Virus record (IMG/VR): IMGVR_UViG_2541047163_000016
DNA length: 40,314 bases
Reading direction: 5' to 3' (one strand)
Source: a virus
Lineage: Duplodnaviria > Heunggongvirae > Uroviricota > Caudoviricetes
The number at the start of each line of letters is the position of its first letter. Position 1 is the first letter of the stretch. The position numbers and the translations under genes are program-made. Below, piece by piece: positions 2,802 through 38,595 of the stretch. Under the pieces are notes generated by a model. The model was not told where the DNA came from. It searched no databases and saw only the letters and a program-made list of their open reading frames with translations.

Positions 2802-4839
2802 ATTCTGTTACCGCTTTTTTCACTTCCACCACAATGCTGTCAATCAGCACCGGGTAAGTTGCATTTTTTGTGATATCCGTTACGCGGAGTTTGTCCACCG
2901 GGAAAGTTCCTACTGGTGACTGCGTCAGGGTAAACGCGGCACCATCCTGACCATCAATAACCGGAATAACCTGAAGGCTGTTATTTCCTGCAAAACGGAA
3001 GGCCAGCGTATGCCATTCATTATCAAATGCACCAAAGGTTCCCAGTTTCTGGTTATTTGTTGCCACTTTTGCATTGTGGTACATCACATTCAGGTCTTTT
3101 GCGTCTGTCTGGATGTAGAACGATGCCAGCAGATTATTCCCTGCATCCCCTGTCAGGGTGACACCCTGCGGCAGAGAGGAAACCGGCCAGTAAAGCCCCA
3201 TGACATACTGGTTTGCCACCAGGTCGCCAGGTACTTTAAAACGACAACTGATTAAACCACCATTTTTCAGCAGTTCAGCACCAGTACCGGCATCATGATC
3301 CAGATACCAAGATGATTTACCTGTTTCCTTGGTCAGTTTCATTGCCTTACCACCTGTGCCTCCTGCATCACTGATAATTTCAGCTTTACCGCCAGCCGGC
3401 TCCCAGCCCTGGGCTTTCAGATTTCCTTCTGACTCACTGACACGATAAGACAGCAGTGTTGTGGTTACTGCTTCAGTTTCTGAAGGTGACGGCACTGGTG
3501 CTTCAGTTTCAGAAGATGGAACATCGGCTTTTACTGTGGTTCGCCCCGCATGAGTCAGAACTGCCGTGGCCAGACGGTCGGAAATAATCCCACGACGTGC
3601 CCATGAACTGAAATGGCTGGCCCGGTCCGCAGATGTCCAGGTGGCGGCACTGTTACGCCACGTTGAGCCGTAATAACCAATGGATTCAATATCCGGGTCT
3701 TCTGCCGGATTGTTGGTGGGTACATTCGCGTCATTTTCATCTGTCATTAATGGAACGAAATGAATGTTTTTATCTGTTTTGTTTTTGTAGCCGCCATAGA
3801 TTGCCTGGTATGCCGGTTCATTTTTCTGTTTCCAGAAATACGTGGTATCGCCACAAATCCACGGAACGCCAGCAGCACTGCCACCGGTACACTGTTCCGC
3901 CTGTTCAGCCAGGTCTGCGCGGAATTTTTCCACCATCGCCAGAAACAGCGCGGAATGCTCCGTCGGCTTCGCATCAATATCAAACTCGCCCTGCATCCAC
4001 ACCACAGCAAGCAGGCGGTTTTTCGGGTTCTTCGCCAGTGCCGCTTTTGTCCGGCTGATTAAGTCCTTATACAGCGGCTTATCCACACCCCAGCGGGCTG
4101 AGTCCTCTGAAGCACCCGTGCTGTCACTGTACGTGCCGTCAGCACCCGCCGTGAATGCAGAACCACCACGGCAGCAGGGAACCAGCAGAATCCCCGCATC
4201 TGCCGGAATAAACGGCAGCAGTTTTTTGGCAATGTGAAGCCCCTGACCCACGGTGCCATATTGCCCTTTAGCCACATCCGCTTTCGGGTGATTTTTTCCA
4301 CTCATATCCTGCACATCATGCAGACAGTGGTCGGCCAGAATGATGTCGTTATACTGACAGGCTTTACCTCCCGGCGTGACTGTACTGCGACGGGCTAACT
4401 GCATAATACGCGGTTCGGGGCGGTCATATGTCTCCGGCAGTGGCAGACCTTCACCGTAAGCCATACCGTTTGACTGACCAGCAAGAACCACCACGTAATA
4501 CCAGGAAGGGGAGCTGGAAGCAGTTTCATTTCCTGACGGACGGGTATGTGTTTCAGCATTATCCCAGTCTGACGGTTCAGCAGTACCGGCAACATCAGCA
4601 CTTAACGGAATGACCGCACCAATACCCGCTCCGGTAATTTCCACACTCGGATCACCGGATACTGGCCTTACCCACAGGCAATCCCGTGTATTAAAACTGA
4701 TGAGACAGTCAGCAAATGTCATTCCTCCTTTTGTTTCGGCCGGAGGAAAGGGAGCCTCAAGAAATGCCGCTGTACCACCGGAAACTTTAACAGTAAAGTT
4801 TCCGGGCATTGATGATAGTTGAACCCATTTGGACGTCAT
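2800..4839 (-). CDS. Large cargo protein: SASA/SGNH-type carbohydrate O-acetylesterase-like domain with C-terminal beta-sandwich/lectin-like region
   Basis: 679-aa ORF with verified ATG; motif VVLAGQSNGMAYG resembles the GQSN(M) nucleophile motif of sialate O-acetylesterase (SASA) family enzymes; serine/threonine/proline-rich linker (...SETEAPVPSPSETEA...) before a C-terminal ~250-aa domain. Not part of the canonical Mu gene set. Confidence 0.55.
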   Translation of the reverse strand: MTSKWVQLSSMPGNFTVKVSGGTAAFLEAPFPPAETKGGMTFADCLISFNTRDCLWVRPVSGDPSVEITGAGIGAVIPLSADVAGTAEPSDWDNAETHTRPSGNETASSSPSWYYVVVLAGQSNGMAYGEGLPLPETYDRPEPRIMQLARRSTVTPGGKACQYNDIILADHCLHDVQDMSGKNHPKADVAKGQYGTVGQGLHIAKKLLPFIPADAGILLVPCCRGGSAFTAGADGTYSDSTGASEDSARWGVDKPLYKDLISRTKAALAKNPKNRLLAVVWMQGEFDIDAKPTEHSALFLAMVEKFRADLAEQAEQCTGGSAAGVPWICGDTTYFWKQKNEPAYQAIYGGYKNKTDKNIHFVPLMTDENDANVPTNNPAEDPDIESIGYYGSTWRNSAATWTSADRASHFSSWARRGIISDRLATAVLTHAGRTTVKADVPSSETEAPVPSPSETEAVTTTLLSYRVSESEGNLKAQGWEPAGGKAEIISDAGGTGGKAMKLTKETGKSSWYLDHDAGTGAELLKNGGLISCRFKVPGDLVANQYVMGLYWPVSSLPQGVTLTGDAGNNLLASFYIQTDAKDLNVMYHNAKVATNNQKLGTFGAFDNEWHTLAFRFAGNNSLQVIPVIDGQDGAAFTLTQSPVGTFPVDKLRVTDITKNATYPVLIDSIVVEVKKAVTE

Positions 4840-33617: not shown

Positions 33618-34148
33618 TTATTTATTCAGTCCGGCGTCCTGTTCAAAAGGCTCGACATAAAAACTTTCAGCGCCTTTATTCACCTTAATACCGGCAATGC
33701 CTTTCACTGCATCCGGCTCCGCTAGGACCGCTTCCTTGTTCACTTCCTCTTTCGTGCGGATGAATCGCTCAAGCCCCATACGGCGCAGCATTTCAATCAC
33801 ACCTTCCACATCACGGCTGACGCTGCATGATGGATTTCCCAGCCGCCATGACACTGTTCCGGTGGTCAGATTGGCTGTTTTGGTTTTGCCGCCGTTCGTC
33901 AGCTCATCGCGGTTGGTTTTGCACCAGTCCTGAATCCCCTTAAAAAGCACTTTGATTTCTTTTTTAAGGTTTTCAATCTGCGGCGTATAACGGGCGGTGA
34001 TTTCTGCCACTTCATCATTCATCGCCGTTTCCAGCCGTAGCGCCTCTCGCTGAATATCGCCCAGGGTACGGATATCGCGGCTGACTTCTTCGCGGGTCTG
34101 CGGTGCAGCCTCGGCTGCGGCCTTTAATTTTGTAACACGTTTAGCCAT
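33618..34148 (-). CDS. gam: Gam-like host-nuclease inhibitor (DNA end-binding, Ku-like)
   Basis: ...LGDIQREALRLETAMNDEVAEIT...CKTNRDELTNGGKTKTANLTTGTVSWR...LERFIRTKEEVNKEAVLAEP... closely parallels the recalled Mu Gam sequence; AAGGA before the ATG. Confidence 0.9.
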   Translation of the reverse strand: MAKRVTKLKAAAEAAPQTREEVSRDIRTLGDIQREALRLETAMNDEVAEITARYTPQIENLKKEIKVLFKGIQDWCKTNRDELTNGGKTKTANLTTGTVSWRLGNPSCSVSRDVEGVIEMLRRMGLERFIRTKEEVNKEAVLAEPDAVKGIAGIKVNKGAESFYVEPFEQDAGLNK

Positions 34149-34159
34149 TTTGTTTTTCC

Positions 34160-34453
34160 TTATTGCAGTGTGCCTGATGCTTTATGCACGCGGTGGCGTT
34201 TAATGATGGCATCCGCCCCAAAAGCCTGTACAGATGCCTGAAATTCCGCTGAGAGAAACTGAATAATTTCAGGACTGTGATACTGGAGAATACTTGCATA
34301 AACGCCACAGAGTGACGTCGGCCTGTTATTCGTATCACGTTCTGTTTTTACATCCACACCAATCTTTTCATGCACTTCAACACAGTCATTGCCTGCCGGT
34401 TTTTCGTCATGCGAAACATGCTTAAATTCAAAAATAACGCGTACTTTGCTCAT
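34160..34453 (-). CDS. Small early protein, paralogue 2 of a tandem pair
   Basis: ATG at 34453; N-terminus MSKVRVIFEFKHVSHDE parallels the upstream gene's MSKVVRIIFEYKEHVIHKN. Confidence 0.5.
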   Translation of the reverse strand: MSKVRVIFEFKHVSHDEKPAGNDCVEVHEKIGVDVKTERDTNNRPTSLCGVYASILQYHSPEIIQFLSAEFQASVQAFGADAIIKRHRVHKASGTLQ

Positions 34454-34457
34454 GGAA

Positions 34458-34730
34458 TTACCCCTGCTGATTAAATTCATTACCTTTAATAACCCCGGAA
34501 CGCATGCTCATATCTTTCATGAGCGCACTGGCTTTCATTGCCACAAGTTCAGCAAAGTCTCTGCTTTCCGCGAGCATAACCACCCCAAAAATCATGGCGG
34601 GTCCATCACCTTTCTGCTTTATCCCGGTTGAACGTATGTCCAGACTTACCCCCATGCGCACTGTTCCATCAGCGTTTTTATGGATAACGTGCTCCTTGTA
34701 TTCGAAAATAATGCGTACGACTTTACTCAT
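34458..34730 (-). CDS. Small early protein, paralogue 1 of a tandem pair
   Basis: 90-aa ORF with verified ATG; shares N-terminal motif with gene 34160-34453. Confidence 0.5.
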   Translation of the reverse strand: MSKVVRIIFEYKEHVIHKNADGTVRMGVSLDIRSTGIKQKGDGPAMIFGVVMLAESRDFAELVAMKASALMKDMSMRSGVIKGNEFNQQG

Positions 34731-35008
34731 CCTCTGGTCCTCGTTCTGTTTGGATAACTGACCCGGCGTCTGACCTCACGGCAGAACCGAATCATGGCAT
34801 TAAAGGCTTCTTCCTCCGTCACCGCTTCCGGTATCCCCGGAACCAGTAACTGCTCCTGTTCATCACGTCCATGACGCGCCATAACCTCAATCACATGCCG
34901 TACCGTGGCAGGCTTTCCGGCAACTATCGGCAATGCACCTTCCGGCAGGACGTAACCAAACTCAATAAGACCACTCGACCACGCCCATGCAATGAGATTT
35001 TTTTTCAC
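34727..35008 (-). CDS. Hypothetical early protein
   Basis: 93-aa ORF, GTG start preceded by GGAGGTG. Confidence 0.45.
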   Translation of the reverse strand: MKKNLIAWAWSSGLIEFGYVLPEGALPIVAGKPATVRHVIEVMARHGRDEQEQLLVPGIPEAVTEEEAFNAMIRFCREVRRRVSYPNRTRTRG

Positions 35009-35009
35009 C

Positions 35010-35264
35010 TCACACCTCCCAGTAAACCGTGCAGCCGCTGATGCGGGTGGCCTTCACACGGCGGCGCAGGCCGTTGGTCTGTATGGTGATTTCAATTTCA
35101 CCGGTTCCCTGCACGTTGCCTACCGGCGGCGTGGTTTTCAGTGCAAAACGTTGCGGATAGCGCTTACTGCGTTCCAGTACCGCACCGGCAAGTTCGGTCA
35201 GACGGCGCGCGCTGTTCAGGGAGTCGAATAAATTCATTTTGTTACCGCAGGATTGCATATTCAT
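35010..35264 (-). CDS. Hypothetical early protein
   Basis: ATG at 35264 preceded by GAGGTG; the track start at 35276 has no ribosome-binding site. Confidence 0.45.
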   Translation of the reverse strand: MNMQSCGNKMNLFDSLNSARRLTELAGAVLERSKRYPQRFALKTTPPVGNVQGTGEIEITIQTNGLRRRVKATRISGCTVYWEV

Positions 35265-35276
35265 ATAACACCTCAT

Positions 35277-35504
35277 TTAGCTGACTTGTTTCGCACCAAC
35301 AGAACGGCATATTCCGCTGTAAACGTCTGTCGCACCTTCGCGATCAAGTCCGGCAGATATCACCATTCGTGTGCGGTCATTAAATTCAAAAAGTAAATCG
35401 CCACATTCTTTATTTTCGGCCAGTGAAATCACCTTCACGTTATCGAAATTAACCAGGTAAAAGCGTCCGTAAATATCAGGAATATTAAATACCGCCATAA
35501 TCAC
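35277..35504 (-). CDS. Small early protein immediately downstream of B (position of Mu kil)
   Basis: 75-aa ORF; size and position match Mu kil, but no sequence-based support. Confidence 0.45.
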   Translation of the reverse strand: MIMAVFNIPDIYGRFYLVNFDNVKVISLAENKECGDLLFEFNDRTRMVISAGLDREGATDVYSGICRSVGAKQVS

Positions 35505-36433
35505 ACCTGTGAGAGTAATTCAGGGTTGGTATAAACCTCTTTAAAGGCCGCATTAATATGTTTTTCTGTCAGCGCCGCGCCTTCACCGCTGGCGGTGAGC
35601 CACGCCTGGTTAAGCGTATGTGTCAGAACGCGTAACGCTCCCGGCTTTTCAGCGATAGCCTGCATGACGGCCAGCTCGGCCTCACCACTGATCCCCCACG
35701 CCCTGGCAATGGCCAGCACATCCGCCTTTTTGGCCTTGCGAAGTTGTTTTGTACGGGCAAGACGGCTGAACAGGCGCGATAAATCATCAAAGGCGCGGCG
35801 TCCACCTTTAAACAATCCGCGCGGGTTACCAATAAGCACCATCCCGATCCCCGTGGCGTCCTGAATTGCCCGGAGTTGCTCCAGACCGTCAATACCCAGA
35901 TGATCCGCCTCATCCACAATCACCAGTCCACGCGTTCCCATCAGGCGACGGCGGATGGCGCGGGATAATGCCCCTTTGTTCGCGCGGGTGTAATCAATCC
36001 CCAGCGCATCGGCCAGCTCCAGCAGACACTCCGTGACGCTGGAGTGCGCGGGTGACAGGGTGATCATCCAGGTGTTTGGTTGCTCCTGGCAGTAATTACG
36101 GGCAGTGGCCGTTTTACCCACACCCGGTACGCCCACAATAACGTTAATACAGCCCATCAGACGAACCGCCTGAAACAGTGCGCGCAGCTCCTGGACTGTC
36201 TGCGTTTCCACAAACTGCGGCGGTTCCGGCAGTGCGCTTTGTTTATTCCAGTTTTCATACCAGGAACGCAGGGAAGCAGCCACAGCGGCGTTATCGCCTT
36301 TATATTTCCCCTTGCGGAAAGCCGATAATGTGCCGTCGGAAATTCCCGCCTCTCTGGCGATGGCATACTGCGTCAGTACGCCGCCATCAATAAGTTCATC
36401 AATGGTCTTGATTACATCGTTAATATCAGTCAT
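35501..36433 (-). CDS. B: Transposition ATPase / target DNA activator B (MuB-like)
   Basis: ...EPPQFVETQTV...VGVPGVGKTATARNY...TWMITLSPAHSSVTECLLELA...LVIVDEADHLG...AEKPGALRVLTHTL closely parallels the recalled MuB sequence including the Walker A motif; ATG preceded by GAGAGG. Confidence 0.9.
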   Translation of the reverse strand: MTDINDVIKTIDELIDGGVLTQYAIAREAGISDGTLSAFRKGKYKGDNAAVAASLRSWYENWNKQSALPEPPQFVETQTVQELRALFQAVRLMGCINVIVGVPGVGKTATARNYCQEQPNTWMITLSPAHSSVTECLLELADALGIDYTRANKGALSRAIRRRLMGTRGLVIVDEADHLGIDGLEQLRAIQDATGIGMVLIGNPRGLFKGGRRAFDDLSRLFSRLARTKQLRKAKKADVLAIARAWGISGEAELAVMQAIAEKPGALRVLTHTLNQAWLTASGEGAALTEKHINAAFKEVYTNPELLSQV

Positions 36434-36504: not shown

Positions 36505-38595
36505 TCAGGCCAGCGGGTCATTTTCTTTTAATTTCGCTTCCAGCAACTGCAATCCCCGCTGGAAATTACGCTCGTATTCTTCATCAGGTTCATCGTCAGC
36601 GACCGGTTGCTGAACGGTCACCGTATTACCCACAGGGCGGTATATGTTTTCCAGCCAGGGCTCCTGCGGCTTGTGCTCCAGCACGTTGACAACCTCATCC
36701 TCGGCATCACGGATTTTTTCCTCTGCGCGTTTACGCATGCCTTTAAGGCGTTGCTGCTGTTTGTAGTATTCCGCGCTGACCGGGAAGGCTTCGCGTTTAT
36801 TGCCGTCCCATACCGCCTCGCAAATCACGCTGCCATCCAGGCGACGTACGGTAATTCGTTCGGCATCATGAATGTCATAGCTGATAAGCACCTTACGGCC
36901 ATGCTCGTCACGCAGCTCGGGCGCGTAGTAAATATTATTCAGCCAGCGTATTTCACAGCGTCTTACAGGGCGTTCCACCATCGGCCGGAACATATCCCGC
37001 AGCTCAACATCGGACAGCCATTCAATTTCCGTGTCCTCTTCCGCCAGGCGTTTTTTTCTGAACTCCGCCGGGCTGTAATGCTTGCCGTTCGGCTTCACCG
37101 GTAATTCATCGTGCGGCCGGTTGTTGTACCACTCAACACCGTCACGAATGGCATCAATCAGTTCAGACCAGGACGGTAAATCACGCATCGCTGACTGCTG
37201 CCGGGCGTTCAGCCGTTTGCCCTGTTGCAGGGCAGTAAATGCCGAGCGTAAATCGCGGTTGGTTTTGCGTAACGTCTCGCGATCTGCACCTTTCCCGAAA
37301 TAGGTGCGGTATTTACGGGCTATGCGCATCGGTAATGTGCGGTTAAGCCGTTCGATAATGCCTCGTCCCTGCGGATTACCGGCAATCCCGGTCGGGTGAT
37401 TAATCCCCAGTCGCGGCAGTATCCCCACAACCTCCTTATCCAGGATGTCGGCGGTTTCCCCGGAGCCGTTATCCGAGTAATACAGAAACGGTTTGCCGTG
37501 ATGGCGAATGCCGTGCTGTATGGCACCGGCTACGGCGAAAACATTTTCAGCCAGGTCAAGGCTCCAGCCCACCACAAAGCGCGTGCCACCGTCGATAACA
37601 AAGGTCACTTCCGGTGCAAATGGCCGACCGTGAACCGGGTGTGCGCATTTCAGCTTCATGCCGTGACCGTCACCAATCCAGACATAATTCACCGGCATTC
37701 TGGACCAGTCGCGGCGCGTGAATCCCTCAAGCTGGCGGTATTCACTGCCGGTCACCCGGCCTTTTTGTTTCACCACTTCCGGCAGTTTCTTCATTGCGCG
37801 GCGAATGGTGTCATAAGACGGCATGATATCGAGCATATAAGGCTCATCAGCGTGCCGGTGCTGCCATTCAGCGACAAAATCCTCGTAAGCCTCGGTCATT
37901 GGTCGGCCGTTTGACTGGCGATACTGCGCCAGAAATTCGGGCAGCCAGTTAATATCTTCGGCTTTTATTTCCTGGCGCTTACCCGGTGCCAGTAAAAGCA
38001 GGCGTTCAGCGGCGTTCTGCGCCTTGTTAAAGGCCGCAATCCAGCGTTTCAGCGTGATTTCACTTAACGCGCGGCTGTTTCCCTTTTTGGCGTTCGCCGT
38101 CTCAACCATTGCCACAATGCGCTCGTCCAGCTGCGAACGTGCCAGGTTGTCAACGATAAACCGGATAGCCTTCGCACAGCTGAAACCAGGTTGTTGCGCG
38201 ACTTTCAGAACTTCGCTGACGATCGCGATTCGTGCATCAGCCACCTGGCGCTGGTTTTCAGTCAGGGCATTAAGGCGTTCGACCATCAGTTGTGGTGATC
38301 CGCGATATGCCTCCACCGCATCAACCACGGCAGGCGAGCGTCTGGCCTTTGTCACCACTGGAGCCGGTGATTCATCGACTTTTTGAGTCATCAGTTGCAG
38401 GGCGTAGCGTTCACGTAATGCCTGCTGCGTCACTTCAGGTAAACAGTCGATGCTGTATTCAGTTGCTTTAGAGCCTGAGCGACGACGGGAACAACAGCTT
38501 TTCCCTTGTACGTAACGTTGTAATGCCTGGCGAATACCTTTTGTTGTAGCAGGCATTCCGGGCGCGCCAATCAGTTCTTTTGCAATGACATACAT
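36505..38595 (-). CDS. A: DDE transposase A (MuA-like)
   Basis: 696-aa ORF directly after ner with GAGAAAGG before the ATG; central region with WIGDGHG... and DNG motifs resembles the MuA catalytic core. Confidence 0.9.
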   Translation of the reverse strand: MYVIAKELIGAPGMPATTKGIRQALQRYVQGKSCCSRRRSGSKATEYSIDCLPEVTQQALRERYALQLMTQKVDESPAPVVTKARRSPAVVDAVEAYRGSPQLMVERLNALTENQRQVADARIAIVSEVLKVAQQPGFSCAKAIRFIVDNLARSQLDERIVAMVETANAKKGNSRALSEITLKRWIAAFNKAQNAAERLLLLAPGKRQEIKAEDINWLPEFLAQYRQSNGRPMTEAYEDFVAEWQHRHADEPYMLDIMPSYDTIRRAMKKLPEVVKQKGRVTGSEYRQLEGFTRRDWSRMPVNYVWIGDGHGMKLKCAHPVHGRPFAPEVTFVIDGGTRFVVGWSLDLAENVFAVAGAIQHGIRHHGKPFLYYSDNGSGETADILDKEVVGILPRLGINHPTGIAGNPQGRGIIERLNRTLPMRIARKYRTYFGKGADRETLRKTNRDLRSAFTALQQGKRLNARQQSAMRDLPSWSELIDAIRDGVEWYNNRPHDELPVKPNGKHYSPAEFRKKRLAEEDTEIEWLSDVELRDMFRPMVERPVRRCEIRWLNNIYYAPELRDEHGRKVLISYDIHDAERITVRRLDGSVICEAVWDGNKREAFPVSAEYYKQQQRLKGMRKRAEEKIRDAEDEVVNVLEHKPQEPWLENIYRPVGNTVTVQQPVADDEPDEEYERNFQRGLQLLEAKLKENDPLA

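Follow-up and report, generated by a model that had tools for sequence, protein, structure and literature searches.

Two adjacent early genes of an Sp18-type Mu-like prophage as putative, anciently diverged members of one protein family

Upstream of gam in the early operon of a Mu-like transposable prophage of the Sp18 type, found in E. coli, lie two small genes, here denoted A and B, that start almost identically and then lose all obvious resemblance. This arrangement raises the question of whether the two genes are tandem duplicates, as the first-pass annotation of this DNA had proposed, or share only their first codons, and of what such a pair of genes might do for the phage. The window, that is, the whole stretch of DNA analyzed, comprises 40,314 nucleotides, with the early operon on the minus strand (Table 1). 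The explanation that we favor, giving it somewhat better than even chances, is that A and B belong to a single family of early proteins and diverged long ago, that A is an extra copy, and that both play an accessory role in binding host or defense proteins. Under this explanation, the family would consist of soluble proteins of about 90 to 100 amino acids that are confined to the semi-essential early region of Mu-like prophages of enterobacteria. B would be the widespread, normally single-copy member of the family, located upstream of gam or of its positional substitute, DUF3164, and A would be an additional member, placed between w93 and B in the Sp18-type lineage of E. coli only.

Table 1. 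Features of the early operon around genes A and B (positions in the window)
Feature	Positions	Strand	Description
Transposase A	36505-38595	minus	early operon
MuB-like ATPase	35501-36433	minus	early operon
75-aa gene	35277-35504	minus	phrog_3375
Kil-like gene	35010-35276	minus	early operon
w93	34727-35008	minus	93 aa; phrog_1518; upstream neighbor of A
Gene A	34458-34730	minus	90 aa; pI 9.5; begins MSKVVRIIFEYKEHV; ORF and translation; phrog_4107
Gene B	34160-34453	minus	97 aa; pI 7.0; begins MSKVRVIFEFKHVSH; ORF and translation; phrog_2230
gam	33618-34148	minus	176 aa; PF07352, E 1.5e-41; downstream neighbor of B
Mu gp11/gp12-like genes	downstream of gam		early operon
A codons 1-12 (MSKVVRIIFEYK)	34695-34730	minus	shared 5' segment, copy in A; codes for the N-terminal β-strand
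B codons 1-11 (MSKVRVIFEFK)	34421-34453	minus	shared 5' segment, second copy

Gene models and selective constraint

Both ORFs and their near-identical N-termini read exactly as first described, and the setting beside gam, which was part of the same description, is confirmed by the Pfam match of the gene downstream of B. The mechanically defined ORF of B reaches an upstream ATG at 34480; the MSKV start is used for B by the RefSeq annotation of identical DNA and by all homologs. Two ORFs on the plus strand, 34389-34631 and 34504-34761, were dismissed as genes because the conservation sits in the minus-strand frames. The genes are tightly packed: the stop codon of w93 overlaps the start codon of A (ATGA), 4 nt separate the stop of A from the start of B, and 11 nt separate the stop of B from the start of gam. 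No promoter-like or terminator-like sites were detected on the coding strand between 33400 and 35600. A and B would be read from one long early transcript and, given this tight packing, produced along with Kil and Gam in the early lytic phase. In adjacency, strand and length (neighbors, both on the minus strand, 90 vs 97 aa), the two genes fit tandem paralogs.

A and B are real genes that evolve under purifying selection. Alleles from E. coli, taken from IMG/VR and from genome loci, give a dN/dS of 0.32 for A (16 in-frame nucleotide alleles) and of 0.38 for B, compared with 0.09 for gam and 0.10 for kil. The tightest windows coincide in A and B and comprise the N-terminal strand (pN/pS of 0.13 for codons 1-15 of A) and codons ~46-65 (pN/pS of 0.07-0.10 in A and 0.18 in B). 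The hairpin turn and the C-terminal tail, where pN/pS reaches 0.9-1.0 in A, are the least constrained parts; no 15-codon window with pN/pS > 1, which would point to positive selection, was found in either gene. The relaxed tail and turn of A, its limitation to one lineage and the occasional truncated or fused forms (P0030, P0036, P0038) could be taken to indicate that A is a decaying, functionless duplicate, or that its N-terminal resemblance to B is coincidental. We give this possibility a very small chance: A is intact in essentially all loci (40 of 41 in IMG/VR), it is retained in nearly all genomes that carry the prophage (see below), its overall dN/dS of 0.32 falls to 0.07-0.13 in individual windows, and chance resemblance is excluded by the shuffle tests of the protein pair, the DNA and the truncated profiles described in the next section.

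Similarity of A and B at the N-terminus and beyond

When compared by BLASTP, A and B are 33% identical over 55 aa, with a pairwise E-value of 8e-4, and their local alignment score of 45 was equaled in 6 of 5000 shuffles. The resemblance is also apparent in the DNA: in the first 36 nt, 28 of the 33 aligned bases match, with a gap of one codon, and the alignment score of 18 (9.8±1.3 in shuffled sequences) was attained in 3 of 2000 shuffles. The shared N-terminal motif has no further copy in the window, in any frame. The divergence that had been claimed for the remainder of the two proteins holds as well: once the first ~15 residues are removed, the two proteins score no better than the shuffled background in pairwise alignment (22 vs 21.5±3.8). 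The break is sharp, with 85% nucleotide identity over 36 nt giving way to no pairwise signal.

Such a sharp break would also be produced by a chimera, that is, by partial gene conversion that left only the first ~12 codons common to A and B, either copied from one gene to the other or maintained as a recombination 'linker' where a mosaic junction lies, with the bodies of the two proteins being unrelated. The N-terminus of A is closer to that of the co-resident E. coli B (10 of 13 residues) than to those of distant B relatives (7 of 13), whereas the body of A is equally far from all of them, as would be expected of a chimera. The B alleles point in the same direction: they fall into two deep types (L002, L003 and L093 compared with the window) that are 59% identical at the protein level and have the same first 33 nt, and codons 1-15 of B show unusually low synonymous diversity (pS of 0.065 vs ~0.2 elsewhere). 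In one sequence, P0046, the two B allele types are recombined within the gene. We nevertheless consider a chimera, the chief alternative to homology of the two proteins, rather unlikely, and part of the reason lies in the N-terminal segment itself. Purifying selection alone explains the conservation of the N-terminal strand, which is the most constrained element of the B family, with V6, F8 and F10 invariant throughout, and would be retained on this account. Furthermore, the 6 of 8 synonymous codons that are identical in A and B are not clearly above expectation by a rough manual calculation based on the codon usage typical of E. coli (P ~0.1). Because amino acid constraint and codon bias can explain the nucleotide identity of the 5' ends, this identity is no proof of gene conversion, which was considered and, with too few synonymous sites available, could not be demonstrated.

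Beyond the N-terminus, A and B were compared at the level of sequence profiles. Close homologs of both proteins come from E. coli only, with at least 67-73% identity, so that the profiles built from them are shallow; alignment of these two shallow profiles with hhalign yielded an E-value of 1e-5 over 44 columns. An exhaustive search with the B-family profile did not retrieve A but identified five distant full-length relatives of B (P0098 and P0100-P0103), which are 25-30% identical to it and all belong to phrog_2230. With these five relatives included in the B profile, the comparison to the A family extended over 74 collinear columns, with an E-value of 1.2e-5 and a probability of 81%, short of 95%. 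When the first 12, 15 or 20 residues were cut from both profiles, the same collinear alignment of 52 columns was obtained, with a score of ~19 (P 0.0045) that exceeded those of all 200 column shuffles (mean 9.9, sd 1.9, maximum 18.6), compared with 7.4 for the reversed control; the hhalign probability for the truncated profiles is only 7.8%. In addition, P0098, one of the distant B relatives, is matched by the HMM of the A family at positions 1-63, with 14 bits. Both the collinear signal that persists without the N-terminus and the match to P0098 argue against unrelated bodies, and so does the coincidence of A and B in length, in constrained windows and, according to low-confidence AF2 models, in the order of secondary structure elements.

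A and B are therefore probably homologous over about 75 residues, which is most of their length. In the merged A+B alignment, the motifs G[IV]S[VL]x[VI]RSxG[IL] and GP are common to the two families, being absent from the B protein of the window itself. When the first 13 columns are left aside, the identity of A to each of the B lineages is 8-15%, and A is an outgroup with respect to them all. The proposal of a tandem duplication followed by diversification thus survives with respect to paralogy, on the strength of the hhalign match and of the residual signal after truncation, but not with respect to a recent duplicate: the low identity and the outgroup position of A indicate a relationship that appears to be very old or very fast-evolving. 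Likewise, the pairwise signal does stop after the first ~15 residues, whereas the similarity of the profiles continues past this point, albeit as a modest signal.

In the PHROGs database, the two families are kept separate, and both are labeled 'unknown function'. B matches phrog_2230 with an E-value of 6.2e-40 (residues 3-97, profile positions 1-88 of 89), and A matches phrog_4107 with an E-value of 1.1e-61 (positions 1-90 of 90). A has no match to phrog_2230 at E <= 0.1 and, by that criterion, is not a member of this family. The linking of phrog_2230 and phrog_4107 into one putative superfamily, seen through profile-profile comparison only, is a modest finding; what is new is that two catalogued families would be joined in a superfamily that occupies a defined genomic niche.

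Confidence in the AF2 models is low, with a pLDDT of 64.6 for A and 53.7 for B. With this caveat, both proteins are predicted to contain a long N-terminal β-hairpin (3-18/24-39 in A and 4-19/25-39 in B) and, at corresponding positions, a helix (residues 57-73 of A and 61-78 of B), whereas the models disagree on the central hydrophobic segment, which is modeled as a strand in A and as a helix in B. In the explanation that we favor, the N-terminal strand (MSK-V-R-[VI]-I-F-E-[FY]) and this central segment would have been kept as the most constrained elements of the core. A Foldseek search of the BFVD with the models of A and B gave no match, and a PDB sequence search with the profiles of both families returned spurious matches only. 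The βββα half of the RNase H-like fold, as in YqgF/RuvX, ASKHA kinases and HicB-like small proteins, is listed among the systems nearest to A and B.

Distribution, synteny and the origin of gene A

The DNA between 34100 and 34800 is 100% identical to prophages of STEC strains, including O157:H7. Prophages of this type are present in 232 of the 5426 complete E. coli genomes (~4%), and A and B are both encoded in 226 of these 232. Homologs of A were found in E. coli only, with at least 73% identity. A is followed by B in all 40 IMG/VR loci with room for both genes as well as in all A-bearing genome loci with sequence past A. When A and B were searched by tblastn against a collection of phage genomes, the only hits were two Stx-phage records with an inserted Mu-like phage. 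When genome contigs were scanned with a degenerate DNA pattern of this N-terminal motif, there was one true match, in Citrobacter braakii, and 11 chance matches.

Genes of the B family are represented by a single copy in six distant lineages of Mu-like prophages, in three of which the gene directly downstream is gam (L037, L038 and L042), whereas in the other three its place is taken by DUF3164 (L004, L040 and L045 of Citrobacter braakii). The DUF3164 protein consists of 212 aa (PF11363, phrog_846; positions 5303-5941 in L004, 3803-4441 in L040 and 6403-7041 in L045). In the lineages that lack A, a w93-like gene usually overlaps the start codon of the B-family gene. A occupies exactly the junction at which w93 and B adjoin in other lineages, which makes duplication in place plausible. 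The simplest origin of A would be a tandem duplication of an ancestral gene at the w93/B junction, followed by extensive divergence. Acquisition of a distant family member, which would give the same arrangement of A and B, is a plausible alternative to duplication in place.

Two E. coli variants lack A, which speaks for A being dispensable. One of these, CI5 (L002), also lacks most of w93. In the other, L043, w93 overlaps a B gene that begins with the A-type first 18 nt (17 of 18 nt identical, including the extra codon) and continues with the B body. This arrangement matches the outcome that would be expected of unequal crossover between the two 5' repeats; alternatively, it could represent the state before the duplication. 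For the chimera discussed above, this B gene counts as support, as an indication that the 5' ends act as recombination substrates, and so do the mosaic junctions located just upstream of A.

In several E. coli prophage variants (L013, L016, L017, L018, L024, L032, L035 and L036), w93 is represented upstream of A by no more than its last 22 codons, with a different sequence in the remainder of the upstream gene. These remnants imply a mosaic recombination junction just before the start of A, about 65 nt upstream of the gene. The early region around A and B is strongly mosaic. In other respects, the locus seems to exemplify the ordinary duplication and turnover of accessory genes, and the ordinary mosaicism, of temperate phages.

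With regard to the neighbors of B, the window Gam matches positions 6-159 of phrog_18351 (298 positions, 'host nuclease inhibitor'), and a Citrobacter homolog of w93 (L045, 7340-7612) matches positions 187-265 of the same family, with an E-value of 3.9e-5. These two matches suggest that a fusion of Gam with a w93-like protein exists in some phages and, by implication, that w93 may work with Gam.

The order w93 - B - gam/DUF3164 is strictly conserved, with spacers of 8-14 nt, among lineages that are 25-30% identical in B. This conservation, together with the functional tie between the flanking genes that the apparent fusion implies, could mean that B and A are accessory parts of a module for DNA-end protection and transposition repair that also includes w93 and Gam/DUF3164, in which they might, for instance, regulate Gam or serve as its adaptors, rather than factors of anti-defense or host takeover. 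We regard such a role, although it is the main functional alternative, as improbable, given that Mu has Gam, with neither A nor B detectable by BLASTP or tblastn, that B remains where DUF3164 replaces gam, and that B occurs without w93 in L037, L040, L042 and CI5. Nor was any DNA-binding or nuclease-related family detectable for A and B in searches that covered Pfam and the members of the B alignment.

Relatives in Mu and possible functions

Gam of the window is 57% identical to Mu Gam, and a BLASTP comparison of the early proteins of the window with those of Mu gave nothing significant for A or B. Given this level of identity and the lack of a Mu counterpart of A and B in BLASTP and tblastn searches, the prophage is not a close relative of Mu. 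There is, however, one Mu protein, gp7 (E6, 87 aa, phrog_10252; L001 4784-5047), that resembles A and B in its size and its start (MAKVIIEIKN). The gp7 gene lies in the same segment of the operon, between kil and gam, but, unlike B, is not adjacent to gam. Its match to phrog_2230 is weak (E 0.009). In a comparison with the merged A+B profile, gp7 produced a collinear hhalign score of 17.0, above the shuffle maximum of 16.1; the corresponding E-values are 0.15 (A), 0.034 (B), 0.1 (A4) and 0.018 (merged), with probabilities of <3%, which is below the usual significance. Thus, gp7/E6 may be the Mu representative of the A+B superfamily. The semi-essential early region of Mu has been described as largely uncharacterized (PMC3820752).

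Searches of Pfam, NCBIfam and PADLOC gave no match for A or B, nor for any member of the B alignment at E <= 10; PADLOC models defense systems rather than their inhibitors. In the literature searched on the Mu early region, Sp18, DUF3164 and the respective accessions, nothing was found on the A and B proteins. With neither a family nor a solved structure nor a paper pointing to any function, the anti-defense or host-takeover role that the first-pass annotation considered typical of such genes would be conjectural. For comparison, Tip (D3112 gp5) and Aqs1 (DMS3) of Pseudomonas Mu-like phages are characterized accessory early genes of transposable phages. The characterized accessory early proteins, namely, Mu Kil and Gam, Tip and Aqs1, are small and dispensable, and bind a host protein or DNA ends. 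A and B resemble these proteins in their small size, their apparent dispensability and the location of their genes past the transposition genes in the early operon, but no similarity in sequence or fold to any of the four was detected.

Our best guess, from their size, solubility, dispensability, early co-expression with Kil and Gam and moderately relaxed constraint, is that A and B act non-enzymatically, by binding a protein of the host or of a defense system. As members of one early-protein family, they might modulate such a protein, possibly in the form of homo- or hetero-oligomers built on the long β-hairpin, and A might have taken on a different or additional target. These would be dispensable accessory functions, outside the transposition machinery. 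A more specific scenario, which we put forward as speculative and improbable, is that the phrog_2230/phrog_4107 superfamily, possibly including Mu E6, consists of early inhibitors of a host nuclease or defense system acting beside Gam/DUF3164, with A kept as a second, neofunctionalized copy in the Sp18-type lineage of E. coli that widens the range of blocked targets.

Because two PHROG families can be joined, B is a fixture beside gam/DUF3164, and A is retained under selection in one lineage, A and B make somewhat more promising subjects for functional screens than a hypothetical ORF chosen at random. The prophage type that encodes them occurs in many O157:H7 and other STEC strains.

Some individual alleles of the two genes deserve mention. 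Damaged forms are occasional and include L035 (about 4001-4050), P0053, P0061 and P0062, several frameshifted B genes, and P0036, an E. coli protein of 67 aa in which the N-terminal half of A is fused in-frame to the C-terminal tail of B via a deletion at the shared TTTTGGGG. The B protein of the window itself has a glycine at position 51 (SLCGVYAS; codon at 34301-34303), an otherwise conserved position that is occupied by aspartate in every other E. coli B allele and in the closest database clusters.
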